The position numbers were made by a program, and so were the translations under genes. A DNA stretch of 64,000 nt from Candidatus Bathyarchaeia archaeon (GTDB lineage: Archaea > Thermoproteota > Bathyarchaeia > Bathyarchaeales > Bathycorpusculaceae). Below the pieces are notes generated by a model that did no database searches, was not told the DNA's origin, and saw only the letters and a list, made by a program, of their open reading frames with translations. Within the stretch, counting starts at the first letter, position 1, and every line of letters starts with the position of its first letter. The DNA lies in NCBI GenBank assembly GCA_049512935.1, contig JBEKWR010000002.1:32001-96000 (forward strand), given 5' to 3'. Below are positions 5,487 through 64,000 of this stretch, in pieces.

Positions 5487-5927
5487 ATGGGTTCTAAGTC
5501 ACCAAGGGGCGAATTCGCCGCAAGGCAGTTAGCTAGGAAACGGAAAAATTTCCGTTGGCACGATCGTTACTTTAACCGTCGCATGCTTATGCTCGACGAA
5601 AAAGTTGACCCGATGCAGGGTGCACCCCAGTCACGGGGCATCGTTCTGGAGAAAGTCGGCGTTGAATCTAAACAGCCGAACAGCGCCATCCGCAAATGCG
5701 TCCGCACGCAGCTTATCAAGAACGGAAGGACCATCACGGCGTTTTTGCCGGGAGATGGCGCGCTCAACGTTGTTGACGAGCACGACGAGGTCGTTGTTGA
5801 AGGCATCGGCGGGACAAGAGGCGGCGCAATGGGAGACATTCCAGGAGTCCGCTGGAAGGTCGTCATGGTTAACGGCGTAAGCCTAAACGAGCTCGTTTAC
5901 GGGCGTAAACAGAAGCCAGCGAGGTAA
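5487..5927 (+). CDS. rps12: 30S ribosomal protein S12 (uS12)
   Basis: [16 protein letters not shown] and [10 protein letters not shown]. Confidence 0.98.
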
Positions 5928-5933
5928 AATGGT

Positions 5934-6524
5934 ATGACACAAGCATCAGTCGCTCAACCTCAAGAAATCAAGCTTTTCCAGAAATGGAGCTTCAAAGACA
6001 TCAAAGTCGAAGACATAGGTCTGCAGCGGTACCTGAACTTGACCCCGATGGTTGTCCCCCACAGCATGGGACGCCACGAGCACCAAAGATTCCGCAAGGC
6101 AAAAGTCAACATCGTGGAACGATTAATCAACAACCTCATGCGTCCAGGCAAGAACGCGGGCAAAAAAGCCAAAGTAACCAACATCGTCAAGGAAGCCTTC
6201 GAAATCATCTACACGCGCACGGGCAAAAACCCCGTTGAAGTTCTCGTGAAAGCCGTTGAAAACGCGTCGCCATGCGAAGACACAACACGCATCAGCTACG
6301 GCGGAGTCGTCTACCACTTGTCCGTTGACGTCGCGCCGCAAAGACGCATAGACCTAGCAATCAGACACATAACCGAGGGCGCAAGGCAAGCCAGCATGAA
6401 CACTCCGCGCAGCATACAAGAAGCAATTGCAGACGAACTGATCCTGGCGGCAAACAAGGACATCAAGAGCGCAGGCGTAGCAAAACGCAACGAAATCGAA
6501 CGCGTCGCGCAATCCAGCAGATAA
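5934..6524 (+). CDS. rps7: 30S ribosomal protein S7 (uS7)
   Basis: KLFQKW, IVERLIN, VDVAPQRRID and EIERVAQSSR. Confidence 0.98.
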   Translation: MTQASVAQPQEIKLFQKWSFKDIKVEDIGLQRYLNLTPMVVPHSMGRHEHQRFRKAKVNIVERLINNLMRPGKNAGKKAKVTNIVKEAFEIIYTRTGKNPVEVLVKAVENASPCEDTTRISYGGVVYHLSVDVAPQRRIDLAIRHITEGARQASMNTPRSIQEAIADELILAANKDIKSAGVAKRNEIERVAQSSR

Positions 6525-10640: not shown

Positions 10641-10987
10641 AAATTTTTTCAGGAAAAAACAAACCAAAAAATCAGAAAACCGAAATCCACTCATAAGAAA
10701 AACCAAAAAACAAACCCGAAAAACCAGACGACAGATTCGCGTTAGATGGACGACAACAGAAAAATTTTTATGCTCTCACACCCATTTTTTGGTAGGGAGT
10801 GGCGAAGCAATAGTCAAATCCGACGATTTGGCTCCGCCGCGGGCAAATATGCAGCCCTCTTCCTTTCCAAATTCTCGAGAACCTGCTTTCCCAAAGTCAA
10901 AGCATCGGCAACAACAAAGGGAATTTAGTCGAGGGATTAGAAATAGACAATCAACATTCTGTACAAGAACTTTCTGAACTTCAAAAA

Positions 10988-12484
10988 GTGAAGTTGAAAC
11001 TTGAGGAAAACGCAGAAAAATACAGGTATCTCGTCAAGTATGCCCCAGTAGGAATCTGTGAGCTTAATCTTTCACCGCTAAAGTTTGAAAGCGTCAACGA
11101 TTCAGCATGCCAAGCGTTGGGTTACAGCGAGCAAGAACTGCTTGTCATGAACCCGTTTGACCTTCTCTACGGCCCAAGCAAAAAACGCTTCGAAGGGCGA
11201 ATTGCAAAAGTTTTGAAGGGCAAAAGAATCGATGAGCCAGTTGAGTATCATGTTAAGACAAAAGATGGCAGGGGAATTTGGGCTTTCTTCAACTTCAAAT
11301 TCACTTACAAAAATGGGAAACCAGAGAACGGCCTGGCAATTGCACAGAACATTACAGCCCGCAAAAGAACAGAGCAGCAACTTGTCCTGTCAGAAATGAG
11401 ATTCCGAAGGCTCTTTGAGACAACCCGCGATGGAATCATGGCTCGAGACCTGAAAGGGCGAATGATCAACTGTAATTCAGCCTACGCCGAGATGCTCGGT
11501 TACACCAGAAAAGAGTTGAGAAACCTCACGGTTCACCAGCTACTGCCCCCAGAGTGGCATGAGCAAAGGGAAAGAGTCGTCGGCAAAGTGCTACAGACTG
11601 GGCACTCCATAGTTTTCGAAAGGGAATACAAACGCAAAGACGGCTCAGTTTTTCCAGCGTCAGTCCGAACTTGGCGTTTGACCGACGGAAAAGGAAAAGT
11701 GATCGGAATATGGTCCATTGTGCGAGACATCAGCCAGCAGAAGGCACTCCAGAAGAACCTTGAAGAACAAGCTGAGAATCTGGAGCGGCTTGTTGAAAAG
11801 AGAACAAAGCAGCTTAAGGATTCGGAGCGTTTAGCAGCTATCGGCCAAACCGCGGGCATGGTGGGGCATGACCTGCGCAATCCCCTGCAAACAGTCATCG
11901 GCGAGTTGTATCTTGCAAAAGCTGAGGTTGATTCGCTGCCTCAAAACGAGATTAAATGCAATTTGCTTGAGAGCATTCATGTGCTAGAAGAGCAAGCCGT
12001 CTACATGGACAAGATTGTCTCCGACTTGCAAGCCTTCGTGCGACCCGTCAAAATAGTAAAAAACTCAGTTATCCTCAAAGAAGCCGTTAATGACGTTCTC
12101 GCGTCAATCGCTATCCCAGATAACATCGCGGTGCAGATGCAAATTAAAGATAATTTAGCCATTAAAGCCGACCCTCAACTTCTAAAACGGGTTCTCATCA
12201 ACCTGGTGACAAACTCGGTGCAAGCCATGCCGAAGGGCGGAAAACTCTTCATCAAGTCGCAGGTTAACCGTGACGGCTACGTTTCAATCTCCGTGGAAGA
12301 CACAGGCGTGGGGATACCTGAAAAGATTAAACCTAAAATTTTCACTCCACTTTTCACCACCAAACCGAGAGGCCAAGGCTTCGGCTTAGCCGTCTGCAAA
12401 CGGGTGATTGAAGCGCACGGCGGCACCATCAGTTTCGAAAGCCAAGAGGGCAAAGGCGCAAAATTCACGATTCAGTTTCCTTGA
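10988..12484 (+). CDS. Cytoplasmic PAS-PAS sensor histidine kinase
   Basis: Two PAS/PAC domains; H-box GHDLRNPL, N-box NLVTNSVQAM, DTGVGI, PLFTTK and GFGL. Confidence 0.95.
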   Translation: MKLKLEENAEKYRYLVKYAPVGICELNLSPLKFESVNDSACQALGYSEQELLVMNPFDLLYGPSKKRFEGRIAKVLKGKRIDEPVEYHVKTKDGRGIWAFFNFKFTYKNGKPENGLAIAQNITARKRTEQQLVLSEMRFRRLFETTRDGIMARDLKGRMINCNSAYAEMLGYTRKELRNLTVHQLLPPEWHEQRERVVGKVLQTGHSIVFEREYKRKDGSVFPASVRTWRLTDGKGKVIGIWSIVRDISQQKALQKNLEEQAENLERLVEKRTKQLKDSERLAAIGQTAGMVGHDLRNPLQTVIGELYLAKAEVDSLPQNEIKCNLLESIHVLEEQAVYMDKIVSDLQAFVRPVKIVKNSVILKEAVNDVLASIAIPDNIAVQMQIKDNLAIKADPQLLKRVLINLVTNSVQAMPKGGKLFIKSQVNRDGYVSISVEDTGVGIPEKIKPKIFTPLFTTKPRGQGFGLAVCKRVIEAHGGTISFESQEGKGAKFTIQFP

Positions 12485-27260: not shown

Positions 27261-27438
27261 GGGGTCGTAGTCCAGCCAGGCTAAGACGACGGGCTCCAGA
27301 AAGCAAACATATAACGGGTTTGCTGACTCCGCGAGGAGAATGACGAATTTCCGGAGCGGTCTTGAAGAAACCCGTAAAGAACGGCTTCGCACTGTTCTTG
27401 GGTAAAGGTCGTCGGTTCAAATCCGGCCGGCCCCACCA
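27261..27438 (+). tRNA. tRNA-Trp(CCA) with two introns (37/38 and 43/44) and encoded CCA
   Basis: GGGGTCG/CGGCCCC acceptor; ACGGG-CTCCAG/A-CCCGT anticodon arm; introns 27300-27369 and 27376-27405 with BHB-like motifs; GTCGG-TTCAAAT-CCGGC T-arm. Confidence 0.92.
27300..27369 (+). ncRNA. tRNA-Trp intron carrying a partly degenerate box C/D guide RNA
   Basis: ACGGGTTTG-CTGA (guide plus D'), CTCC-GCGA-GGAG hairpin, ATGACGA (C'), GGAGC second-guide remnant. Confidence 0.65.
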
Positions 27439-30983: not shown

Positions 30984-32183
30984 ATGGGAGCAAAAAGTTT
31001 ACTTTCGCATTCCTTCCGCATCGCTTGGAAAGACCTGACAGAACTGTTTAGGAACCGTTTGGGTCTGGTTCTGCTTATACTCATGCCGCTGTTCATGATG
31101 GCGATGATCGGCTTCATCTACCCATCCAGCAACACAACGATAAGCAATATGCCAGTTGCCGTGGTGAATCAGGATTCAGGCTTCAACGGCTTGACCCAGC
31201 CGAGCCAGTTCTTCATAAGCACCCTGCAGGGCATAAACAGTCAAACTCACATGCTGAAGCTTTCAAACGCCACAAGCTTAGACCAAATCAAATCTGATAT
31301 TCAGAACAGCAAGATAGACGGCGGCATAATCATACCCAGCAACTTCTCAACCTGCATAATCAACGGCGAACAAGGAACCCTAATTATCGTTACAGACCAA
31401 TCTAACCCGACGGTTTCCGCTGAACTGGAAGGCGCTTTGTCAGGTGTGTTCAGCGAGATGGGCACGGCTCTCGCACAGCATAACGTTCAAGGACTCTCAG
31501 CAGCCGTAACAGCTAACGAGTCTCTCGCAGTAGTGCAGCCCTACATCGTGAAAACGGAAGGGGTTGTTCCTGGAAACCAAAGCTACTTCAACTTCATTGC
31601 CCCTGGAATCATGGCGATGACAGTTATGATGAGCGTCATGACTGGGCTTCCTGTGGCAATATCTCAAGAGAAGGAAGTCGGCACCATGGACGGCATGATG
31701 GTTGCGCCAATCAACAGGTTATCCATCATTCTAGGAAAAGCTTTAGGTCAGACCGCTCGTGGCTTAATTCAAGGGGTCATAATAATGGCGTTGGCTATCG
31801 GGCTATTCGGGGTCGCAGTCCACGGAAGCATTCTACTTGTGTTTGGTTTGCTCTTGCTGGGCGTATTTTCATTCGTCGGCTTAGGCATCGTGTTGACGTC
31901 CCTCGCTAAGGATCAGGAAACGGCGCAGATGATGATGATGACGCTAATGTTCCCAATGATGTTCCTCAGCGGAGTAATGTTCCCACTACAGCAGATGCCA
32001 TGGTACATGCAAGACATAGCAAAATTCCTTCCGCTAACGTATGCTGCTGATGCAATGCGAAAAGTCATGGTGCTAGGCGCAGGAGTCCCCGCCATCTCCA
32101 ACGACCTGATTATCATGATCGTGTTCGGTGTAGTCATGATTGCAATCGCTGTTCCGCTGTTCAGAAGAATGATGACCAGGTAA
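30984..32183 (+). CDS. ABC-2 exporter permease
   Basis: N-terminal TM, large external domain, EKEVGT, FLSGVMFP and PLTYA. Confidence 0.92.
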   Translation: MGAKSLLSHSFRIAWKDLTELFRNRLGLVLLILMPLFMMAMIGFIYPSSNTTISNMPVAVVNQDSGFNGLTQPSQFFISTLQGINSQTHMLKLSNATSLDQIKSDIQNSKIDGGIIIPSNFSTCIINGEQGTLIIVTDQSNPTVSAELEGALSGVFSEMGTALAQHNVQGLSAAVTANESLAVVQPYIVKTEGVVPGNQSYFNFIAPGIMAMTVMMSVMTGLPVAISQEKEVGTMDGMMVAPINRLSIILGKALGQTARGLIQGVIIMALAIGLFGVAVHGSILLVFGLLLLGVFSFVGLGIVLTSLAKDQETAQMMMMTLMFPMMFLSGVMFPLQQMPWYMQDIAKFLPLTYAADAMRKVMVLGAGVPAISNDLIIMIVFGVVMIAIAVPLFRRMMTR

Positions 32184-53495: not shown

Positions 53496-55604
53496 TCAGC
53501 TCGAGGGTTTCACACTCGGAGAGAAATTCAGCTTGTAGTCCGCCAGATTCCCTGCAAACATTTCTCTTAGTTCTCCGTCATCTTTAAGCCATTCTCCAGC
53601 GCCAAGCAGTACCCGGGTCATTTCCGTTCTTTCCCTTATCACTTTCAGTATTCGTTCTTCATAAGTGCCCTTCAAATCAAATAGATAGATTTCGACGGGT
53701 TCCTTCTCCCGAAAAGCTAGTGAGTTGATCCTATCGACTCGACCCACCCTTTGCTCCATGGCAGATGGACTCCATTCAAGGTCATAGTGCATGATTCTAC
53801 GGCAGGAAAGGTGAAGATCGATGCTCTCCCTTCCCTTTTGGCTGCAGATTAAGACGTAAGGAGGCCCCGGAAGGTTGAATGCAAACTGAGTGTGTTCAAT
53901 GGGTTTGTCTTCTTCCGATTGGTCGCCAGTTATTGTTGCCACATAATCGATGTGCTGACTAGGACCCCATGTTTCACTCCAGTATTTGATTTGAGGTTCT
54001 CTTCCAATTAGCTCCTTGTTTAGCTGATTTAGGACCTCGTCGATTCGAGAAGCGTCAAGATCTTTGAAGTAGTATGAAGCGAATCTGGCTCTATCAATAT
54101 TTCCAGAAAATTCTCGTCTATGCAGTGCCGCTCTAACTTTCACCCATTTCTTTGCGCCATCTTTCTGTTCCCTTTGGAACCTGTCTTTCAGGCGTTTTCT
54201 CAACTCACGTATAGTAGCGTTTCTCTCACAGAATACGACAATTTTCTGGAACGAGGTTGGGTTGCTCCTTACGATTCGTTCGATTTCCGATACAGCGAAC
54301 TCCAACTTTGGGGACTCGTTTCCTGCTGCCTTTGGAGGAAGGAATGCAACTACATCATTAAACTGCCCGCTCTTCTCGTTTGAATGCCGGATAGCACTAT
54401 ATGACGAGCACAGCGTCTCTCGATTGCTTGCTATATGCGGCCTCGCACCCCCTGAGAGCATTTCCATGAATTTGCTTTCCAAGGCGAAAGTGGCGAATGC
54501 ATGACTTGGCGAAGCCATCAAGTCCTGAGGAACATCTAAAATGTTTAATCTTCGCCTTTCCTTGCCATTCGGCCACTTATCTGGCCAGGTATTTCGAACG
54601 AGATATCTGCGAAGTTTGGTCTCTACCTGAGTCTTTAGGTCTGTCGAAGGTGGATCTCTCGTCCTTACAGCCGACCGGAATTCATTCAAGGTTTCCTTAA
54701 GTCTCGCAACTTCTGTTCCTTCGTTAATGATCGTCGCGGTATACAAGTCCTTGATTCGTTCGATAAGCTCATCGATGTCCAGTGAGAATGGGGTTGCAGT
54801 AACCAGCAGAGCTCTGTGTGCTTTCGAAGATAACACTTCTTGGAGAAAAGCGTGATTCTGTTCTCCGCCGAGTCTATGGGCTTCATCGAGAATCAATAAG
54901 TCTGCAGCTGTACCGGCAGGTCTTCGAGTTGAAAGAACCAGCCGTTGCAGATTTCGATATGCTCCGTAAACACTGACCCACTTGCCAGAATTACGATCAT
55001 AGTTATCAAACCAGAAACGATTCATCTGCTTTCTTGATACAGTTCTTGGGTTTTCAACACCTGTCCCTACGGGAACGTCAACGAGCCTCTGAGCTCTAAA
55101 TAGCTCTTTCAGAAGACGGCTTCGATTCTTGCCTCGCGGTGCATTCTTAGCATGGGCGAGTTTTTCAAACATATCTCTAACCTCATTGCCAGTTGTGTTT
55201 TTCATCGATTCATATGAGACAAAAGAGATCCCGGATTTTATTCGATCCAACCTATCGACTTCTTTCCCTTTTGGGAGGAACGAGTTTTCAACCTGTTTAG
55301 ACCTCAACAAATCCCAACGCTTCCTCCAGATTTGTGTCATATTGTTGTTGGAAGTGAGAACTAGAACCTTTGTTTCTGGGCCTTTCCTTTTGAAAACCGA
55401 AGCGGCAACTGCGAGAGAGACATAGGTCTTTCCCATTCCGACTTCATCAGCTAGTATCGCGCCAGGAACAGCATTCGGCCCATAAAGCCGTTCTAAAATT
55501 GCAGCGGCCGTAATTTTCTGTCGGGCAATGTCAGGAGCTTCGACCAATTCATCCAGATTTAGGTTGAGCCAATTCAAATCATGCACTGAAAGAGATTGGC
55601 TCAT
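53496..55604 (-). CDS. SF2 (SNF2-like) helicase/ATPase of a three-gene defence-like operon
   Basis: ILADEVGMGKT, LILDEAH, TATP, ESIDLH and EQRVGRVDR. Confidence 0.9.
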   Translation of the reverse strand: MSQSLSVHDLNWLNLNLDELVEAPDIARQKITAAAILERLYGPNAVPGAILADEVGMGKTYVSLAVAASVFKRKGPETKVLVLTSNNNMTQIWRKRWDLLRSKQVENSFLPKGKEVDRLDRIKSGISFVSYESMKNTTGNEVRDMFEKLAHAKNAPRGKNRSRLLKELFRAQRLVDVPVGTGVENPRTVSRKQMNRFWFDNYDRNSGKWVSVYGAYRNLQRLVLSTRRPAGTAADLLILDEAHRLGGEQNHAFLQEVLSSKAHRALLVTATPFSLDIDELIERIKDLYTATIINEGTEVARLKETLNEFRSAVRTRDPPSTDLKTQVETKLRRYLVRNTWPDKWPNGKERRRLNILDVPQDLMASPSHAFATFALESKFMEMLSGGARPHIASNRETLCSSYSAIRHSNEKSGQFNDVVAFLPPKAAGNESPKLEFAVSEIERIVRSNPTSFQKIVVFCERNATIRELRKRLKDRFQREQKDGAKKWVKVRAALHRREFSGNIDRARFASYYFKDLDASRIDEVLNQLNKELIGREPQIKYWSETWGPSQHIDYVATITGDQSEEDKPIEHTQFAFNLPGPPYVLICSQKGRESIDLHLSCRRIMHYDLEWSPSAMEQRVGRVDRINSLAFREKEPVEIYLFDLKGTYEERILKVIRERTEMTRVLLGAGEWLKDDGELREMFAGNLADYKLNFSPSVKPSS

Positions 55605-57364
55605 GGCAATTGCTTCCTTAGGACAGGACTAATATCCTTCTTGATTGGTTTCACAATTCTTATCATTGCTCTCCAAGCTTTCTTACGTTTGTCTCGAGAA
55701 AGAATGAACTTAGCTATTTCGAACTTCGACCATTCGCGCCAATAAATTTCTGTTGGACTCAGACCGGCAACGTCGGAAGCGGAACTTATGCAGCCCTTTA
55801 GAATAGCTTGAACATAGTTGAGCTCAAGTTCTGAGTCTGCATCTTCAATCATAGCCGCGAGATTCGTCAGAGCCTCTCGTAGCGCTACCATACGTTCATG
55901 CCAAGGGAAAGTGGAGTCGCTCGTTGAAGATTTGAAAAGGTCAGTTGTTTGGGCCCTTGACAGTTCACTATCCGTGTTTTCGAAATCTCTTTTTCCAGAT
56001 AGGAGGGCAAGATATTGGTCGAAGGACCATTTTTTTTCCAATGTCGAGTCATCGCATACATCAAATGGACATTCTATGGGAACCCAATCTGCTTCAAAAC
56101 CAATCTCGACGATCGGATTTCTGGGCAATGTCGCCACTGCCCTTTCTGACCCGAATTTTGGGTCCGACAGATTGATTCCCTGGGCAGGATTGACTTCAGT
56201 CCCCGCAAGTGAAACGACAGTGTCTTCGATATTGTGTGGTACAATCCATTTAGGAATTAGTCTCTGAGCTGAAGGCTCGTATCGTATAGACTCTAAAGAT
56301 ATCCAGCGCTTAATTCGTGGTTTTGCTTGTGGTTTGATAAAATTACACTCTTTGAAGCTTACTTCTTTTGCCTTGGGCAAGAAATCCATCGGAAGCGACG
56401 GAGATGTATATTTCAATTGCCAAGCCAGTTCAACGTTGCCAGACTGAGTCCACTTTCGTAACATGGCGGCAGTCGTCGCATTCGGAGACCCTCCCAGCAT
56501 TTGCCAGGTACCCTCTGTGTATACAGCCTGCAGTTTAGCGTGGAGTGGTCTGGAATTCTCTCCGCCTACACGAAAAACTTTGATATGCACCCTATCTTTT
56601 AGGCCAGCGAAAGTAGACCAGCTACCAAAAACTCGACCATCCGGTGCTCCCTGCAGATAGATGTTAAGAGAGGCGGTCTTTGAGTAGGAGTGCTCGACTA
56701 GATGCGAAAAGTAGCCCTCGTCCTCCTGGTTCGCTTCGTCCTCAGCCTGATCGGTAAAGGGTGCGATAACATGAGCACGCGTCCAAGATCCACTCCAATT
56801 CCATTGCTCCCAAATCGAAGCGGTTTCTGAACTTGCAATAATTTGATCATTAATGCGAGGCGGAACATTCCCGAAGTGTTTCTTCGAATACCAAGCTCCA
56901 AATTTTGTGCTTGATCCGATACTTCCAAGTGGAAATGCCCAGCGTTCTATCGCATCCGGAAGCACCCAACCATCCCATTCGAAATATGAGAAGACCTCAA
57001 GATTCTTCTCCCAGCCACTAGGCGTCAAGTTTCCACTCCCGATGAACAATGCAGTCTTGTAGAGCTTTGAATCCTTGTTACGAAGCATTAGTGCAATTAC
57101 TTTGGGATGCCATAGGTTAGTCCCTGGATATTTGCAAACATCGTAACCTGCACCCTGACCATGGAAGTTATCTCCATCAACTATGACAGTAACTAGAAAA
57201 TGTCCCTTCAATTGGCCATGACCGCAAAGAATTCCATCAAGAACTTCGGTTTCAAAAAATGACCTGCGAAAAGTATATGTACAAAACAGTGCAGCTTGGA
57301 TTCTGCAATCCCCTATGGCTTGCACTATTTCGCTCCCCAGATTACTATAGCGGATTTTACTCAC
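55601..57364 (-). CDS. Phospholipase D-family nuclease-like protein with two HxK motifs
   Basis: CTYTF, WHPKV...GSGNLT and LHAKL...GSPNAT. Confidence 0.82.
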   Translation of the reverse strand: MSKIRYSNLGSEIVQAIGDCRIQAALFCTYTFRRSFFETEVLDGILCGHGQLKGHFLVTVIVDGDNFHGQGAGYDVCKYPGTNLWHPKVIALMLRNKDSKLYKTALFIGSGNLTPSGWEKNLEVFSYFEWDGWVLPDAIERWAFPLGSIGSSTKFGAWYSKKHFGNVPPRINDQIIASSETASIWEQWNWSGSWTRAHVIAPFTDQAEDEANQEDEGYFSHLVEHSYSKTASLNIYLQGAPDGRVFGSWSTFAGLKDRVHIKVFRVGGENSRPLHAKLQAVYTEGTWQMLGGSPNATTAAMLRKWTQSGNVELAWQLKYTSPSLPMDFLPKAKEVSFKECNFIKPQAKPRIKRWISLESIRYEPSAQRLIPKWIVPHNIEDTVVSLAGTEVNPAQGINLSDPKFGSERAVATLPRNPIVEIGFEADWVPIECPFDVCDDSTLEKKWSFDQYLALLSGKRDFENTDSELSRAQTTDLFKSSTSDSTFPWHERMVALREALTNLAAMIEDADSELELNYVQAILKGCISSASDVAGLSPTEIYWREWSKFEIAKFILSRDKRKKAWRAMIRIVKPIKKDISPVLRKQLP

Positions 57365-58440
57365 AGCAAATCATTCCGCTTCATCATCCTGACAGCATTC
57401 GACCATCGGCAGTCACCGAGGGTGCTTTCGGAACGGCTTCCGTTATACTGATGTGTATACAGCTTACCGTCTGAAAAGCTTAACCATAGATCCGACTCTC
57501 CCCTTCGCCTTGCTCTAAACTCTGTTTCATGCCAATCGCAAAGCTCCCGAAGAGTCGGAGGTCGGGAAGCAAAGGCTCGTACTGAATCCCAACGAGTTCC
57601 CATTAAATCTTTAGGTGGCAACATCTTGAGTACGGGCCATGAGTCAATGGAAGATTTTCCATCGAATACGACAGAATTGAATACCTTGCGTACTTCATGA
57701 GACCATCTGCAGAATTCATGGGCAAATGACGATATTGGGCCGTAGCTTCCAAGCAGAGGAGCAGCATCATTCCACGCCTCTTTCTCGGACCAATTCAACC
57801 TCTCCATCGCACAGTATAGCTCCGGCATCTTAAGCTTGAGTCTCTCATGAAACTTTCGCCGGAAGCTCGCAAGATTCGCAGAGCACACCTGCTCGAAAGA
57901 TACTCGCCACTGACTCCAGTCTCCATTCGAGAGCCTAGGCGGCTTGTTTGCCCCCTCAGTCCAAACTAAGGCAGAATCTGTTAACATAATTCTCTCTCGC
58001 TCGACAATATCTAGACTTCTGAAAGGTTGCAAGTGTACGCCCAACAAACCCTGCGAACGTTGGTTATGCAGTACTGGGCGGTAAGGTTTTTTTTGAGGGG
58101 CATCTTCCTCGTCTGATTGTCTACGTGACAGTTCGATTCCATCAAAGCTTTTTTCGTCGTGCATTTTTGGGAACTTAGCCCATGTAAGCTTGAGGCATCT
58201 CTCCCACGAGAGAAAATTTCTTACAGCGTCTGGATCATTCTTAAAAGGAATCGTAGACCATCTTAGTAGAATTAGTGTCCAGAAAGCGTCTTTGACAGAA
58301 ATTGTCCTTCCAGTAAGGCAGGGAACAAGTCTATTACTGAGTTCTTCCCTCATTGCGTCGAGTCCTAGCGGATCTGGCGGATTGTTGTTTCGCTCGGGGG
58401 TCGTCCAGAATAAATTAGCCAATCGAACACTAGCGGTCAT
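57361..58440 (-). CDS. DPLGL-motif protein (DUF6361-like N-terminus), first gene of the defence-like operon
   Basis: W..P....DPLGL..R..LS..LVP.LT..T pattern; 4-nt overlap with the PLD gene. Confidence 0.62.
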   Translation of the reverse strand: MTASVRLANLFWTTPERNNNPPDPLGLDAMREELSNRLVPCLTGRTISVKDAFWTLILLRWSTIPFKNDPDAVRNFLSWERCLKLTWAKFPKMHDEKSFDGIELSRRQSDEEDAPQKKPYRPVLHNQRSQGLLGVHLQPFRSLDIVERERIMLTDSALVWTEGANKPPRLSNGDWSQWRVSFEQVCSANLASFRRKFHERLKLKMPELYCAMERLNWSEKEAWNDAAPLLGSYGPISSFAHEFCRWSHEVRKVFNSVVFDGKSSIDSWPVLKMLPPKDLMGTRWDSVRAFASRPPTLRELCDWHETEFRARRRGESDLWLSFSDGKLYTHQYNGSRSESTLGDCRWSNAVRMMKRNDLL

Positions 58441-59237: not shown

Positions 59238-60026
59238 CTAAAGCTCTATTATGTCATAATCATTTGGGATTATGGTTTCACCCGAAAACCGGCTTGATGC
59301 TTCATCGAGTATTTCCTTTTCGGTTCCGTAAAGCAGATGGACAAGAACAAGTCTTTTGGCGCCTGATTTCTGCGCTAAATCAGCAGCCTCTCTAGCGGTA
59401 GAATGCTTTGTCAGCTCAGCAAGGCCATGCATTTTCTCGGTGCAAAAAGCTTCATGGATAAGAACATCAACGTCCTCGACCAAATCGCTCAAACCTTCAA
59501 AAGGTCGAGTATCCGGAACATATGCAATTGAAAACGAGGGATTTGCCATGTCAATTCGGTATCCGTATGCTGGAACCACATGCTGAAGAGGGATCGGTCG
59601 CAAAAGGGCATCTTTGTTTAATTGAATAACCGGTTGCTTTGCGATATCCTGATTGGTTATCTTGGTCATCTTCTCTAATTCGCTCAACTGGTAAGGAAAA
59701 AGGGTCTTGGTAATTTGCAATGTTTGGCTGTATACGACGCTATCAGCAAGTACATTGATTATCGAAGGAATTGGCTTTTGAGACACTATAGCTGTCCAAA
59801 ATGCATGGTAATACAAAGGTACCCCGAAGGTGTGGTCTCCATGAAGATGACTCAGGAATAGATAGTCGATTTTTTCAATCTCGTAGCCGAGCTTTGTCAG
59901 CCTAAGTGTAACGCTCCCACAGCACTCAGTTAGCAAACGTAATTTATCTGAAAAATCAATCAAGAAATTGGTGCTTTCTCTATGCAAAGGGAAGGTGTTG
60001 GTCCCAATAATTGCAATTTTGGGCAA
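59238..60026 (-). CDS. Metallo-beta-lactamase hydrolase, RNase Z-like
   Basis: SHLHGDH, H..PAYGYR, PDT, LIHEA, HST and LVLVH; GAGGT SD. Confidence 0.88.
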   Translation of the reverse strand: MPKIAIIGTNTFPLHRESTNFLIDFSDKLRLLTECCGSVTLRLTKLGYEIEKIDYLFLSHLHGDHTFGVPLYYHAFWTAIVSQKPIPSIINVLADSVVYSQTLQITKTLFPYQLSELEKMTKITNQDIAKQPVIQLNKDALLRPIPLQHVVPAYGYRIDMANPSFSIAYVPDTRPFEGLSDLVEDVDVLIHEAFCTEKMHGLAELTKHSTAREAADLAQKSGAKRLVLVHLLYGTEKEILDEASSRFSGETIIPNDYDIIEL

Positions 60027-60146: not shown

Positions 60147-61352
60147 TTACTTCTTCTTTCGATGGCAGATTTCTTTGACGGTTTTCTCGGGCAGATTATC
60201 GCCAAACGAATCCTTCGGGACGTACTTGATTTTGAAGTATCTCAGAGATTCTTGATAGTGTTCTCTCTCAATCACTCTAATCAAGCGTTCGTATGTCACC
60301 TTTCTGCAGATTTCGTTCTCCGAGTTGTTTACGAGAACGAACTTTCGGTCTCCTCCATCCTCTTTATTCAGGTCCATGACTGCATGTCCAGTAGTTCCCG
60401 AGCCGGCAAAGAAATCCAAAACTAACGCATGCTTCCCCCCTGCTACCCGAACAAGCTCCTTCACGAGCTTCATAGGCTTCGGAGTCCGAAACATGTCTCT
60501 TCTCCCCAGAATCTCCTCGAGCTCGTCCTTGGCGGATGATGTTGTCCCCAGTCCCTTCAGTATCGTTTCCATGTGGGTCGGAGTCTCTGCATACTCTTCA
60601 CCGCTCCTAGGTGAAGGCATCATCATCGAGCTGAAGTTCGTCTTGTTTTTGTCCTTGAAACAAGCAAAGATGTTCTCATGCACGGTTTTGATGTTGTGAA
60701 AGGGCCTTTCCACACGATTCTGATCAAACTTGGGATCAGTCTTGGGCCAAACTAGAACTACCACGTTGGCTTCGCCAAAAATAGTTTGACATAAGAGGAG
60801 CAGAGTGCCTGTTTCATGTTCGTCAATATGAATGAACATTACACCATTTTCTGACAAAAGGCCATATGCAGCACGGATTCTCTTGTCCATGAAGCTGAGC
60901 CACTTACTATGAACGTATGCGTCGCCAGCGTCTGCATAGTCATAATCATCGTAGTTCAAGGATTCCATCCCTGTATTATATGGGGGGTCGATGTAGATTA
61001 CGTCTACTTTCCCAGCGTAAGACTTTGATAGATGTCTGAGGGCCGCGAGATTCTCCCCTTCTATCAAGAGGTTTGATCTCTTGCCATTGTTGATCGCCAG
61101 TTTCCTCATTTCCGCCAGCTTGATGTCGTTCTTATCCAATAGTTTCTCTATTCCCTCTAAATGCTCTTCGAAGGTAAGGCCGTACCCAGTCTCGACTAAT
61201 GCCCGTCTCACGTCGTCCAGATAACGCAGTAGAGTAGGATTTCCCGAGGCCTTCTCGACGAACCGCCTCACAGCAGATATATGTCTCAGAAGTTCGTCGT
61301 TTCGCCTTCTCGAGACATTTGCGTTACCAGGCGCATGCTTCTTTTTACTCAT
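60147..61352 (-). CDS. Type III Mod-like beta-class DNA methyltransferase with short TRD
   Basis: NLLIEGENL, IYIDPPYNTG, HSKWLSFM, TPKP and LDFFAGSGTTGHAV. Confidence 0.9.
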   Translation of the reverse strand: MSKKKHAPGNANVSRRRNDELLRHISAVRRFVEKASGNPTLLRYLDDVRRALVETGYGLTFEEHLEGIEKLLDKNDIKLAEMRKLAINNGKRSNLLIEGENLAALRHLSKSYAGKVDVIYIDPPYNTGMESLNYDDYDYADAGDAYVHSKWLSFMDKRIRAAYGLLSENGVMFIHIDEHETGTLLLLCQTIFGEANVVVLVWPKTDPKFDQNRVERPFHNIKTVHENIFACFKDKNKTNFSSMMMPSPRSGEEYAETPTHMETILKGLGTTSSAKDELEEILGRRDMFRTPKPMKLVKELVRVAGGKHALVLDFFAGSGTTGHAVMDLNKEDGGDRKFVLVNNSENEICRKVTYERLIRVIEREHYQESLRYFKIKYVPKDSFGDNLPEKTVKEICHRKKK

Positions 61353-61360
61353 AGTGTCAC

Positions 61361-63133
61361 CTACGATCTAGTCAGCCTTGTGTGTGACCTCGAAAACGCA
61401 TGATCTGCGATTGAAACGTTCTTTGGCACTTCCAGGACTGCTAAATTAGGGCAGTTATAAAATGCCCAATCTTCGATTTGAATAACACTTCTAGGGATTT
61501 TGGCTTTCTCTAGTCGTACGCAATTGGCGAAGGCTCCTTTTCCTATGAGCGCGACTCTATCAGGGAGGGTGGCGGACCTAAGATTGCCACACCCGAAGAA
61601 TGCGTTCCGTCCTATTGTTCTAACGGTGCCAGGTATCACGAATTCCTCTTCAGGGTTACGCATTGAGTAGTAAACTAGCTTGGTCTTGGATCTGTTATAC
61701 AACACTCCGTTTTCATAGACAAAGTTAGGACTATTGTTGGTTAGTGACAGGGATGGACAGTTGGCAAAGGGGTTGTAGCCGATGACCTCAAGGGTGCTGG
61801 GAAGGGTCACGTTCGACAGGTTAACACAGCCAAAGAATGAATGCCTCTGAATGGTAGTGACCCCCTCTGGAATGGCGAAGGATTTGGAAGAACTGTTAAT
61901 TGCAAAATAGAAGATTGACGTCCTATTTTTATCGTACAACGCGTCGTTCTCGAAAACGAAGTAAGGGCTGTTGTTCACCAAACTCAAAGATGGGCAACTT
62001 GAGAATGGGTTATTCTCCACTATCGCTACACTGGGTGGAATTGTTATCTTCCGAAGGGCAGAACAACCATGGATTGCATGCTTACCTATGCTGATAATAC
62101 TATCAGGAATCTCAAAGACGCTAGCGGTGTTACTCATCGAGTAGTATATCAACCGGGTTTTCGTCCGGTCGTATAGCGCCCCATCCTCTAGAATGAAGTC
62201 CGGGCTCTCATTCTTTAGGATTAAAGCCGGGCAATTGCTGAATGGATTGTCCCCTATTACTGAAATATGCCGTGGAATAGTTAGGTTGACTAAATTGGTG
62301 CAATCGGAGAAGGTCTCACCGCCTAGGTTTGTAACGGTGTCTGGTATTGTTACCTTCATAATTTCAGGGCGGTCCCAGAAAACTCCATTTCTCAGTTTCT
62401 TCACGCCTTTCGAAATTGCTACTAGTTTCCCGTTACCGAGATATCTAATCAACTCACCGTTTTCAATCTCAAATTCGGAAGAACCAGAGGTTGCTTTAGC
62501 TCGTGTTGTTTTGTCCTGCTGGTTTGTTTTTTCCACAATAATGGGGTGGTAGGCTTCTATCTCTTCCTCGAATAATCCTGTAGTGCTTGAAACTGCTCTG
62601 CCTTTCAGAGCGTGGTCGGGTTTTGCGCAATTGCCTGCTGTGAGGGGGAACATTGTGTATCCGTAATCGATCAATCCGGACCTTAGTGTTGATGCATATA
62701 CACATAGGAATTGGAACTGCTTGTTTTCACTTGCTGGCAGGACAGGCCGGCTCTGGAGTACCTTAACGGCCTCGACTTCTTTGTCATATTCCTTGTCGTC
62801 CCATCGTCTACACCTTATTGCAATCAGCCAGTCGTCGGGTTCAGCCTTGATCGCAATATCACACTCATTGGTAAATCCCATATACAGGCTGCTAGGGCGA
62901 TAACCCTTTAACAATAGCCTGTCAGCACATTCGACGATGACGTAGTTTCTTTGGGTGAACCTTGCGAATGCGATATCACCCAGTCGTATCTTATCCCCGT
63001 AATCAATGAGTTCTTTAGCTAGGTCCACCTTGATTGTGTATTGGCCAGGATACCTCTTTTGATATACATTCTGAGAGACTTCGCGGTATCCGAGCTTCCA
63101 GAAGTAGTTTAGGGGATTCAGGATGTCTGTCAT
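61361..63133 (-). CDS. Fusion of an RM-type endonuclease-like N-terminal domain and BspA-type (LRR_5) repeats
   Basis: N-terminus VDLAKELIDY..NYVIVECADRLLLKGY..CDIAI..IRCR..FLCVYAS; C-terminal repeats IPxxVxxIGxxAFxxCxxL and FxxExGxLYxxxKTxL. Confidence 0.78.
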   Translation of the reverse strand: MTDILNPLNYFWKLGYREVSQNVYQKRYPGQYTIKVDLAKELIDYGDKIRLGDIAFARFTQRNYVIVECADRLLLKGYRPSSLYMGFTNECDIAIKAEPDDWLIAIRCRRWDDKEYDKEVEAVKVLQSRPVLPASENKQFQFLCVYASTLRSGLIDYGYTMFPLTAGNCAKPDHALKGRAVSSTTGLFEEEIEAYHPIIVEKTNQQDKTTRAKATSGSSEFEIENGELIRYLGNGKLVAISKGVKKLRNGVFWDRPEIMKVTIPDTVTNLGGETFSDCTNLVNLTIPRHISVIGDNPFSNCPALILKNESPDFILEDGALYDRTKTRLIYYSMSNTASVFEIPDSIISIGKHAIHGCSALRKITIPPSVAIVENNPFSSCPSLSLVNNSPYFVFENDALYDKNRTSIFYFAINSSSKSFAIPEGVTTIQRHSFFGCVNLSNVTLPSTLEVIGYNPFANCPSLSLTNNSPNFVYENGVLYNRSKTKLVYYSMRNPEEEFVIPGTVRTIGRNAFFGCGNLRSATLPDRVALIGKGAFANCVRLEKAKIPRSVIQIEDWAFYNCPNLAVLEVPKNVSIADHAFSRSHTRLTRS

Positions 63134-63134
63134 G

Positions 63135-63737
63135 TTATGGAGACCTGCTTTGGCTATCTGATTTCAGGATCGGACGCAAGGTTTCCATCATGACTTCCAA
63201 AACTCCCTTCGCACTGAGGCTTGTAGTATCTATTGACTTGTACTTCATCGAGTACCTGATTAGGAAGCCTTCCATCTTCTCCTTGGACTCCTTGTAAAGT
63301 GCTACCTTTCGGAGGTCAGGGTCGCCCGGGTCTCTCTTTCGAAGCCTCTTCATACCTGCGTCTTCGCTGGCCCAGAGGAGGAAGGTGTAGTCTGGCTTGC
63401 CAATTAAGCCGATCAAGCATTGATAGATGGGTTCGGTCTTCTCCCCTCCGCACCAGAAGTAGTTTGACAGCAGATGTCTGTCAGTAATGATGTTCTCTCC
63501 GGCGAACTTGTGGTACAAGTATACGTTTCCAAGTCCGTAGAACCATGCTCTTAGGGCATCATCGTCTACCTGCTGATTGATGTAGTCTCTAATCCTGATG
63601 TAGTTTGTAAAACCTCCGTCAGGATCAAAGACGTAGTGCAGGGGCTTCTCGACGAATTTGAAGTTCAATTTCTCTGCCAGTTTCTTGGCTGCGGTGGTTT
63701 TCCCGACGCCGTCCATTCCCTCTATTGCTATGTGCAT
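63135..63737 (-). CDS. Thymidylate/deoxynucleoside-monophosphate kinase-like P-loop protein
   Basis: IAIEGMDGVGKTT, IITDR, KPD and RLRKRD lid; GGAGG SD before ATG 63737. Confidence 0.85.
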   Translation of the reverse strand: MHIAIEGMDGVGKTTAAKKLAEKLNFKFVEKPLHYVFDPDGGFTNYIRIRDYINQQVDDDALRAWFYGLGNVYLYHKFAGENIITDRHLLSNYFWCGGEKTEPIYQCLIGLIGKPDYTFLLWASEDAGMKRLRKRDPGDPDLRKVALYKESKEKMEGFLIRYSMKYKSIDTTSLSAKGVLEVMMETLRPILKSDSQSRSP

Positions 63738-63747
63738 CAAATTCCTC

Positions 63748-64000
63748 CTACCAATCAAGGTGCGAAGTTGGATTAGGCCTTCTATGCGCGACCTCCGCTT
63801 TCTTGCCCGCGGTGAAGAAGCTAAGGTCTTCCAGATAGCCTGAAACTCGTCTCACCCGATATATGTCATTGCTGCCGCAACTCGGGCAATTGTCGAAGGT
63901 CCCAGTGAGGTTACATTTCAAGCATGTATCTAATGGAAAATTGATTCCGAGGTAGCTGACCCCGTAACTTATGGCAGCCTCGATGGTCTCAATAACCGCC
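63748..64000 (-). CDS. nrdD: Anaerobic (class III) ribonucleoside-triphosphate reductase, C-terminal part (not in ORF track)
   Basis: Manual translation YLGINFPLDTCLKC..CPSCGSNDIYRVRRVSGYL..FTAGKKAEVAHR shows the Zn site and the glycyl-radical loop. Confidence 0.9.
   Translation of the reverse strand, partial: AVIETIEAAISYGVSYLGINFPLDTCLKCNLTGTFDNCPSCGSNDIYRVRRVSGYLEDLSFFTAGKKAEVAHRRPNPTSHLDW

Follow-up and report, generated by a model that had tools for sequence, protein, structure and literature searches.

A leucine-rich-repeat protein carrying a degenerate restriction nuclease domain in a five-gene cassette with an anaerobic ribonucleotide reductase, a kinase and a DNA methyltransferase

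The stretch of DNA analysed here (64,000 nucleotides, referred to as the window) comprises positions 32,001 to 96,000 of the forward strand of contig JBEKWR010000002.1 from a Candidatus Bathyarchaeia archaeon (assembly GCA_049512935.1). An open reading frame (ORF) on its minus strand (61361-63133), with the frame open throughout, encodes a 590-aa protein (P0001), in which an N-terminal domain (N-domain) homologous to the nuclease domain of single-chain type IIB/IIG restriction enzymes is fused to BspA-type leucine-rich repeats (LRRs). The catalytic E-x-K motif of these nucleases has been replaced, and the gene is part of a cassette of five with the fixed order NrdG, NrdD, thymidylate-kinase-like kinase, dead-nuclease-LRR protein and Mod-like methyltransferase. 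With modest confidence, we favor the reading that the 590-aa protein is a non-catalytic adaptor of a methyltransferase devoid of a recognition domain, that it is tied to the kinase, and that it belongs to a mobile five-gene unit. The gene is divided as follows.

61361..63133, minus strand: whole ORF; type IIB/IIG-like nuclease domain, predicted to be dead, followed by a linker and a solenoid of BspA-type LRRs (Pfam, PADLOC, AlphaFold2 [AF2])
62543..63133, minus strand: residues 1-197; PD-(D/E)xK fold, homologue of the type IIB/IIG N-terminal nuclease (PADLOC, phmmer, alignment, AF2, Foldseek, VIA-align, ESM Atlas)
62807..62815, minus strand: codons 107-109; R-C-R where the catalytic E-x-K belongs (alignment with type IIB relatives)
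62468..62542, minus strand: residues 198-222; linker of low confidence and little conservation (column conservation 0.27; predicted local distance difference test score [pLDDT] <50 at residues 203-217)
61364..62467, minus strand: residues 223-590; BspA-type LRR (LRR_5) solenoid of ~368 aa (Pfam, conservation, AF2)

The N-terminal domain is homologous to type IIB/IIG nucleases

Residues 13-161 aligned to positions 13-170 of the PADLOC type IIG REase-MTase model PDLC03624 with an E value of 2.7e-13. A phmmer search with residues 1-230 in a database of 1.84 billion representatives gave 174 matches at E ≤ 1e-3 and 33 at E ≤ 1e-10; the type IIB/IIG relatives found in this way were ~35% identical over ~150 aa, with E values down to 1.7e-15. 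All five of the long matches scanned (1059-1329 aa) contained HSDR_N_2, N6_Mtase and Methylase_S, the architecture of single-chain type IIB/IIG enzymes, and four of them also Eco57I. In 9 of the 24 phmmer relatives scanned, LRR_5 was present instead. The N-terminal 230 aa alone had no match in Pfam (E ≤ 10), NCBIfam or the PDB sequences (E ≤ 10), and Pfam HSDR_N_2 itself was below significance on the 590-aa protein.

The AF2 model of residues 1-230 (pLDDT 86, predicted template modelling score [pTM] 0.82) shows a small N-terminal sheet followed by an alpha-beta-beta-beta-alpha-beta core. The top three Foldseek matches in the PDB were entries of BsaXI (E 9e-5 to 6e-4, probability 1.0), the best being the type IIB restriction-modification (RM) subunit 8w2p_A with an E value of 9e-5. 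VIA-align, run against 48,161 chains, placed HsdR of EcoR124I at the top (Z 8.0), followed by another HsdR (7.5), a restriction-endonuclease-like fold protein (6.4), BsaXI (6.4, 198 residues aligned), BpuSI (6.3) and DrdV (6.2), and a look-up in the ESM Atlas agreed with the fold assigned by Foldseek and VIA-align. The model thus has a PD-(D/E)xK fold, matching BsaXI, HsdR, BpuSI, DrdV and Hjc. Residues 1-197 also include a conserved GLFE..I..Y tail motif that is common to type IIB enzymes. Sequence and fold both show that this region is genuinely homologous to the nuclease at the N-terminus of type IIB/IIG single-chain enzymes, and the original prediction of a type IIG/I-like endonuclease N-terminus, made from the window sequence, is borne out by PDLC03624, phmmer, the AF2 model, the Foldseek matches to BsaXI and VIA-align. 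An HSDR_N_2-type nuclease domain at the N-terminus (PADLOC and phmmer) is what the protein shares with type IIB/IIG enzymes; neither the gamma-class N6_Mtase nor the specificity modules (Methylase_S/target-recognition domain) were found in it, LRR_5 being its only Pfam domain.

The catalytic site has been lost

The N-domains of 16 LRR-linked members were aligned with the N-termini of 17 type IIB enzymes, and 12 further fused proteins were checked separately. The N-terminal motifs listed in the original prediction are visible in this alignment. All 17 type IIB N-termini contain a glutamate in a helix, an aspartate, E-C-K and then a GGQLFSY motif. In the 590-aa protein the E-x-K position is occupied by R107-C108-R109, in line with the substitution noted originally. 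None of the 28 LRR-linked members (0/16 in the alignment, 0/12 among the further fused proteins) has a glutamate at the first position of E-x-K, and the lysine is kept in 1/16. The GGQLFSY motif and a hairpin of ~10 residues ahead of D92 are absent from the LRR-linked N-domains. The helix glutamate (E68) is kept in all LRR-linked members examined, and D92 in 12/16, with histidine in two and asparagine in two.

The positions homologous to the active site of the N-domain are E73, D90, E105 and K107 of BsaXI. In the BsaXI study (PMC11997821), each of the four residues is reported to be essential for cleavage (E105A and K107A each abolish it), and type IIB enzymes are said to conserve all four without exception. 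The pattern of an active PD-(D/E)xK nuclease, E/D...(D/E)-x-K, is not present in the 590-aa protein. Because E-x-K is retained in 17/17 type IIB N-termini and in 0/28 LRR-linked members, and the homologous BsaXI residues are essential, the N-domain is predicted to be inactive as a nuclease.

The original prediction had also allowed for a variant active site. If R-C-R formed an unconventional but working active site, this would account for the invariance of E68 in the members examined and for the retention of D92 in most of them. However, the triplet at the E-x-K position varies freely within the family (RCR, QCM, RCH, RCY, KCT, ACR, RCE, KCF, NCY, FCE, YCE, HCK, KCK and others), which argues against any alternative active site; in addition, D92 is replaced by histidine or asparagine in 4/16 members, and both the GGQLFSY motif and the hairpin are lost. 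Since the replacing residues are not conserved, the variant site was rejected, and we regard it as extremely improbable. In an unrooted tree, the 16 LRR-linked N-domains were split from the type IIB sequences at one branch (support 100/99), a topology consistent with one origin of the LRR-linked form.

The leucine-rich repeats form the better conserved half

LRR_5 (PF13306) matched the C-terminal part of the protein in four stretches with an E value of 1.1e-57 and 193.8 bits (gathering cut-off 27.7), and no other Pfam domain was found in the 590-aa protein. The AF2 model of the full-length protein (pLDDT 87.1, pTM 0.84) contains two domains only; a BFVD fold search with this model returned only generic LRR proteins at low TM. 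The methyltransferase and specificity modules of type IIB/IIG enzymes are thus replaced by BspA-type LRRs at residues 223-590, as had been stated from the sequence.

No hydrophobic stretch was found in the first 30 residues by inspection, without a predictor, indicating that a signal peptide is missing; the same had been noted originally. The repeats are of the same type as those of BspA-type surface proteins (PF13306). Unlike these, the 590-aa protein has neither signal peptide nor anchor by inspection and is assigned to the cytoplasm, and its repeats are joined to a nuclease-like domain, in a gene that belongs to a nucleotide/methylation operon. A secreted adhesin was rejected on account of the missing signal peptide (by inspection) and the operon setting. 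A cytoplasmic, non-catalytic adaptor is, in our estimation, the somewhat likelier nature of the protein.

Mean column conservation was 0.67 in the LRR part versus 0.54 in the N-domain, and the LRR part aligned over 366-370 residues in all 20 relatives, with no sizeable indels. This pattern would fit a constant partner better than variable ligands. Because the LRR half is the better conserved one and has no sizeable indels, a diversifying immune sensor is argued against. Scans of the 590-aa protein with Pfam, NCBIfam and PADLOC gave no match to a STAND/NTPase module of the NACHT or NB-ARC type. With prokaryotic NLR-like/STAND sensors the protein shares a repeat domain, a nuclease-type domain, a cytoplasmic location and an occurrence in defence islands; it differs from them in that no NTPase module was detected, the nuclease-type domain appears dead, and the repeats are conserved and not variable. 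The immune-receptor-like sensor of the original prediction is therefore not supported: no STAND/NTPase was detected, and the LRRs, aligned over nearly constant length in the 20 relatives, are the better conserved half.

The gene belongs to a mobile five-gene cassette

The other four genes of the cassette are the following.

60147..61352, minus strand: cassette gene 5; Mod-like beta-class DNA methyltransferase, 401 aa, with DPPY and FAGSGTT (Pfam, PADLOC, PDB alignment)
63135..63758, minus strand: cassette gene 3; thymidylate-kinase-like P-loop kinase, 207 aa from a TTG start (Pfam, alignment)
63748..64000, minus strand: cassette gene 2; NrdD, anaerobic ribonucleotide reductase, of which the C-terminal 83 of 579 aa lie in the window (the gene runs off its end), with RVSGYL (Pfam, alignment)
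L053 6462-6908, beyond the window: cassette gene 1; NrdG, 148 aa (DNA of the same genome past the window end)

This order was found in 15/15 non-redundant loci, as far as each contig reaches, by tblastn with the five proteins of the Bathyarchaeia locus and by Pfam. Near-identical loci were counted once; the set consists of the Bathyarchaeia locus, L003, L004, L005, L006, L007, L008, L009, L065, L066, L067, L068 and L070, a phage (L073) and a viral contig (L074). L065 stops 843 nt past the LRR gene, and the short contigs L066, L068 and L070 show only the genes that they can hold. Identities to the Bathyarchaeia proteins (tblastn) were 53-78% for NrdD, 51-79% for the kinase, 50-74% for the methyltransferase and 35-64% for the LRR protein. 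The cassette has a size of ~5.8 kb.

Full-length members were present in metagenome-assembled genomes (MAGs) of Nitrososphaerales/Nitrososphaerota (L003, L007), Methanocellaceae (L004), Methanosarcinaceae (L005, L008), Planctomycetota (L006) and Poribacteria (L009), and on several unbinned contigs. A word-indexed search with residues 1-200 identified 8 proteins of 324-593 aa, all with LRR_5 and 36-68% identical. The complete genome of a phage (L073, Ca. Heliusvirales, 57 kb, gut) encodes all five genes, with an LRR protein 33% identical over its full length and a methyltransferase 49% identical, and on the IMG/VR contig L074 the LRR protein and the methyltransferase are fused and a Metallophos phosphoesterase is encoded between NrdD, which follows NrdG, and the kinase. 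The architecture hence recurs in 8 database proteins, 7 genome loci, further metagenome loci and one phage genome; the fusion is neither unique nor a chimera, either of which the original prediction had named as grounds for discarding it. An assembly chimera or a pseudogene is ruled out by this recurrence and by the open frame. Contigs with the same DNA were also present in four other peat/wetland runs, as short pieces none of which covers the whole gene.

The N-domain was found in 0/24 genomes of the same genus and in 0/400 genomes of the same phylum, and the cassette kinase in 0/399 Clostridia genomes. No plasmid record matched the cassette. Among 50,697 phage records, a single phage matched, without close relatives by megablast, and pattern scans of IMG/VR with the queries P0002 and A3 gave no match. 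The flanking genes are unrelated from locus to locus; serine recombinases, insertion sequence (IS) elements or defence genes adjoin the cassette. Judged from this distribution, the cassette is rare, accessory and mobile and has spread horizontally, including to phages.

In both viral records large serine recombinases adjoin the cassette (L073 8419-11269; two at L074 28-2684), hinting that it moves as cargo of a recombinase-driven element. An IS66-family transposase (L007 9230-10642) splits the LRR gene of one Nitrososphaerota MAG, the 3' part of which resumes at 10723-11274. In two archaeal loci, a gene for an AP_endonuc_2 TIM-barrel protein stands between the LRR and methyltransferase genes (L003 9806-10831; L008 9165-9935), and in the viral contig L074 a Metallophos gene precedes the kinase (5825-6391).

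The cassette genes fit no single system of PADLOC-DB v2. Gene by gene, NrdD had no PADLOC match and NrdG only a weak one to pVip (5.7e-6). Matches of the kinase were to PDC-M51B and VakA and those of the methyltransferase to generic MTase_III models, while the LRR protein hit nothing but the IIG N-terminus. In the literature searched, supplements excluded, no description of the fusion or the cassette was found in the text available (including PMC11283538 and PMC12386605). The cassette is a mobile unit that was assigned to no known system by the Pfam, NCBIfam and PADLOC scans run.

The partner enzymes look active, and two of them occur fused to the LRR protein

The methyltransferase gene starts 8 nt past the LRR stop. 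Its product matched Mod proteins by PADLOC (MTase_III, 4.8e-77) and in the PDB (E 7e-43 to 1.8e-31), and DPPY and FxGxG are invariant in 9/9 cassette methyltransferases. It resembles by sequence the type III Mod subunits EcoP15I Mod (4zcf), Mbo45V (7dsu) and 6k0w. Unlike these, it is ~100 residues short in the recognition-domain region (51 residues versus 151 in Mbo45V, 7dsu), and its partner is a dead-nuclease-LRR protein. No Res helicase-nuclease is present among the five cassette genes in any locus, so that neither the gene content nor the short recognition domain is that of a type III RM system.

One base separates the kinase stop from the LRR start in the Bathyarchaeia locus, and the two overlap or lie ≤16 nt apart in 13/13 loci. 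Relatives of the kinase begin at an ATG 7 codons further in (63737). The P-loop, the D-R-H motif and the lid arginines are kept in 11/11 members; the PADLOC matches were VakA (1.4e-9) and PDC-M51B (4.5e-12). This cassette-specific kinase subfamily occurred in 1/50,697 phage records, the cassette-bearing phage. As in viperin-kinase operons, a radical enzyme acting on nucleoside triphosphates stands beside a nucleotide kinase. The VakA match is weak, however, and unlike in viperin operons the radical enzyme is a bona fide NrdD, whose gene occurs in strict linkage with those of the LRR protein and the methyltransferase.

NrdD has the hallmarks of a class III reductase, with the thiyl cysteine in MGCRTRV, the glycyl-radical motif RVSGYL and a CxxC...CxxC zinc ribbon aligned with solved NrdDs. 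It scored 347 bits against TIGR02487, above the cut-off of 326, and is without about the first 150 residues of longer NrdDs, the ATP-cone region included. By their conserved motifs, the methyltransferase, the kinase and NrdD look active. Besides the cassette copy of NrdD (355 bits), the same genome encodes a housekeeping NrdD that scores 655 bits and, in addition to the cassette kinase, two thymidylate kinases; because of these, the cassette NrdD and kinase are considered accessory. Three NrdD paralogues are present in this genome (L054, L056), with 655, 355 and 208 bits. The assembly, which is 93% complete, yielded no reductase of class I or II.

Among the best 120 longer methyltransferase relatives, LRR_5 and N6_N4_Mtase occurred in one polypeptide in 11 clusters, all of which contain the N-domain as well. 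In one of these fusions (P0164), residues 1-573 are 42% identical to the entire 590-aa protein and are followed by the methyltransferase domain; another (P0269) is 31% identical to the 590-aa protein (BLASTP and Pfam for both). A search for longer kinase relatives yielded a single protein made up of kinase, dead nuclease and LRRs (P0161), and a Metallophos-kinase protein (P0160). Because it is found fused to each of them, the LRR protein is placed physically between the kinase and the methyltransferase. Co-folding of the LRR protein with the kinase gave no answer (score 0.00) and is evidence for neither side.

These fusions set the comparison with type IIB/IIG enzymes, of which BsaXI is the solved example. 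The N-domain is homologous, has the same fold and, in the 11 fused clusters, is again the N-terminus of a methyltransferase-bearing polypeptide. Unlike in type IIB/IIG enzymes, E-x-K is gone, an LRR solenoid lies between nuclease and methyltransferase, and cleavage is not expected; the linked methyltransferase is not of the gamma class (N6_Mtase) but a Mod-like beta-class N6_N4_Mtase, with neither Methylase_S nor another recognition domain.

Proposed role of the protein and alternative readings

According to the reading we favor, the N-domain would descend from a single-chain type IIB/IIG nuclease, having lost E-x-K and GGQLFSY and kept the fold. The LRR protein would act together with, and most likely in a complex with, the Mod-like adenine/cytosine-N methyltransferase encoded downstream. 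The LRR/dead-nuclease module may supply the engagement of substrate or partner that the methyltransferase lacks, and may keep kinase and methyltransferase together, and the five-gene cassette may provide a mobile element or its host with both deoxynucleotide supply and DNA methylation. A dead nuclease fold serving as a DNA-binding, partner-binding or decoy domain had been suggested originally; the dead fold stands (no E-x-K glutamate in 28 members), partner binding gains from the cassette and the fusions, and DNA binding is not favored, since the domain is mostly acidic.

Several points weigh against the adaptor reading. The net charge of the N-domain, -18 to +4 and mostly acidic, does not favor DNA binding; the means, -2.8 in LRR-linked members and +0.6 in type IIB, gave no clear difference between the two groups. 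Physical binding in the split form, the ligand of the LRRs and the purpose of the cassette are matters that we infer. Nothing indicates that the methyltransferase needs a partner, and beta-class methyltransferases without a recognition domain can be non-specific. The AP_endonuc_2 gene intervening in L003 and L008 makes the link between LRR protein and methyltransferase looser than that between kinase and LRR protein. The kinase fusion P0161, known from one sequence on one contig, may result from a frameshift error. A pure methyltransferase-adaptor view also gives no account of what NrdD/NrdG and the kinase do.

For the purpose of the cassette, defence, counter-defence combined with replication support for mobile elements, a modified-nucleotide pathway and an anti-restriction decoy remain as candidate readings. 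Phage gene sets that combine NrdD/NrdG, a deoxynucleoside monophosphate kinase and a methyltransferase, such as that of phage T4, are, like viperin-kinase operons, among the closest comparisons. More tentatively, and with chances well below even, the cassette could be an unrecognized mobile multi-enzyme system, in which an LRR scaffold with a fossil nuclease physically couples a de-regulated NrdD, a dedicated kinase and a methyltransferase without recognition domain, for making and installing a pre-replicative methylated nucleotide or for a methylation-gated, nucleotide-based immunity common to archaea, bacteria and phages. In that case, LRRs would stand in for a target-recognition domain, or scaffold the enzymes, in prokaryotic DNA modification.

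As a sensor of a new methylation-linked defence system, the LRRs would detect a phage component or unmodified DNA and the methyltransferase would mark self, with NrdD/NrdG and the kinase making or unbalancing nucleotides as effector and the dead nuclease as docking or decoy domain. The Bathyarchaeia locus does lie in a dense defence island (BrxL fragment, AAA_15/DUF3696 ATPase, UvrD-nuclease, ZacB/ZacC-like PLD and SNF2 genes), a helicase and a PLD gene are found upstream in L065, and the family is rare and patchy; the kinase also resembles viperin-associated kinases, and the pairing of radical enzyme and kinase parallels viperin operons. Yet no NTPase switch domain was detected and no effector is obvious, the LRRs are conserved without sizeable indels and thus not diversifying, and NrdD keeps every residue for ordinary reduction. 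Moreover, several loci have no defence neighbors, and the cassette is also found beside serine recombinases in a complete phage and a viral contig. Overall, we consider a defence sensor unlikely.

The absence of a recognition domain from the methyltransferase would also suit a pre-replicative nucleotide modification complex, in which the methyltransferase acts on free nucleotides, the kinase and NrdD turn the product into a modified deoxynucleoside triphosphate, the optional phosphoesterases remove the canonical nucleotide and the LRR protein is a channelling scaffold. This logic resembles that of phage base-replacement gene clusters. Fusions to the LRR protein are found for both the kinase and the methyltransferase, the optional Metallophos (L074; P0160) and AP_endonuc_2 phosphoesterases are available for the removal step, and the only phage record with the cassette kinase subfamily (1/50,697) is the cassette phage. 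Against it, the methyltransferase is by sequence a typical Mod-type DNA enzyme (MTase_III 4.8e-77; PDB Mod), a precedent for a Mod-type enzyme acting on nucleotides was not found, and most loci are cellular, without visible virus genes. Such a complex therefore appears improbable.

An equally small probability is given to an anti-restriction decoy. Here, the dead nuclease would associate with host type IIB/IIG/I enzymes through their nuclease domains, or mimic their substrate-bound state, and poison cleavage, the cassette being a counter-defence module that offers broad methylation and deoxynucleotide supply against nucleotide depletion. The occurrence in a complete phage and in a viral contig beside recombinases, the acidic N-domain of most members, its retention over deep divergence and the lack of the ATP-cone in NrdD, as in the phage T4 NrdD among the PDB matches, would all fit. 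However, the cassette occurs in 1/50,697 phage records and in no plasmid record, the N-domains group in a single clade separate from every type IIB sequence, although a decoy would be expected to track host enzymes, and the LRRs are left without a role.

Under the adaptor reading, a restriction nuclease domain would have been kept for hundreds of millions of years after its catalysis was lost, and re-used with LRRs as a component of a methyltransferase. The strict linkage to NrdD/NrdG and to a private kinase subfamily across two domains of life and phages, together with the fusions, argues for a functional unit. If LRRs indeed set the site or the substrate of the methyltransferase, this would be a new way of targeting DNA modification. 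Should the cassette serve defence or counter-defence, nucleotide reduction would be added to that repertoire.

Neighborhood of the cassette in the Bathyarchaeia genome

In its own genome the cassette locus lies within a defence island. A three-gene candidate defence module on the minus strand (window 53496-58440) encodes a 359-aa protein of no family, a PLD-like protein of 587 aa (PADLOC ZacB 1.9e-12; PDC-M27B) and an SNF2 helicase of 702 aa (ZacC 7.5e-31; PDC-M27C). Between the cassette and these Zac-like genes, a 262-aa metallo-beta-lactamase-fold hydrolase (window 59238-60026, minus strand) matched Apyc1 (anti-Pycsar) with an E value of 0.008, below the cut-off. Upstream of NrdG and past the window end (L053 6994-14951), more defence-type genes were found: DUF6946, a 343-aa protein of no family, a 1003-aa GajB-like UvrD helicase with a PD-(D/E)xK nuclease, an AAA_15/DUF3696 ATPase (NsnB/HEC-03B, ~1e-68) and an ORF of 388 aa whose match to BrxL is confined to the C-terminal half of the latter.

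The assembly comprises 2.3 Mb in 49 contigs and is 93% complete; no archaeal small-subunit rRNA was found in it. Along with the closest relatives of the cassette, a tRNA match of 175 nt on the plus strand (window 27261-27435), with an intron of ~100 nt, suggests an archaeal host.

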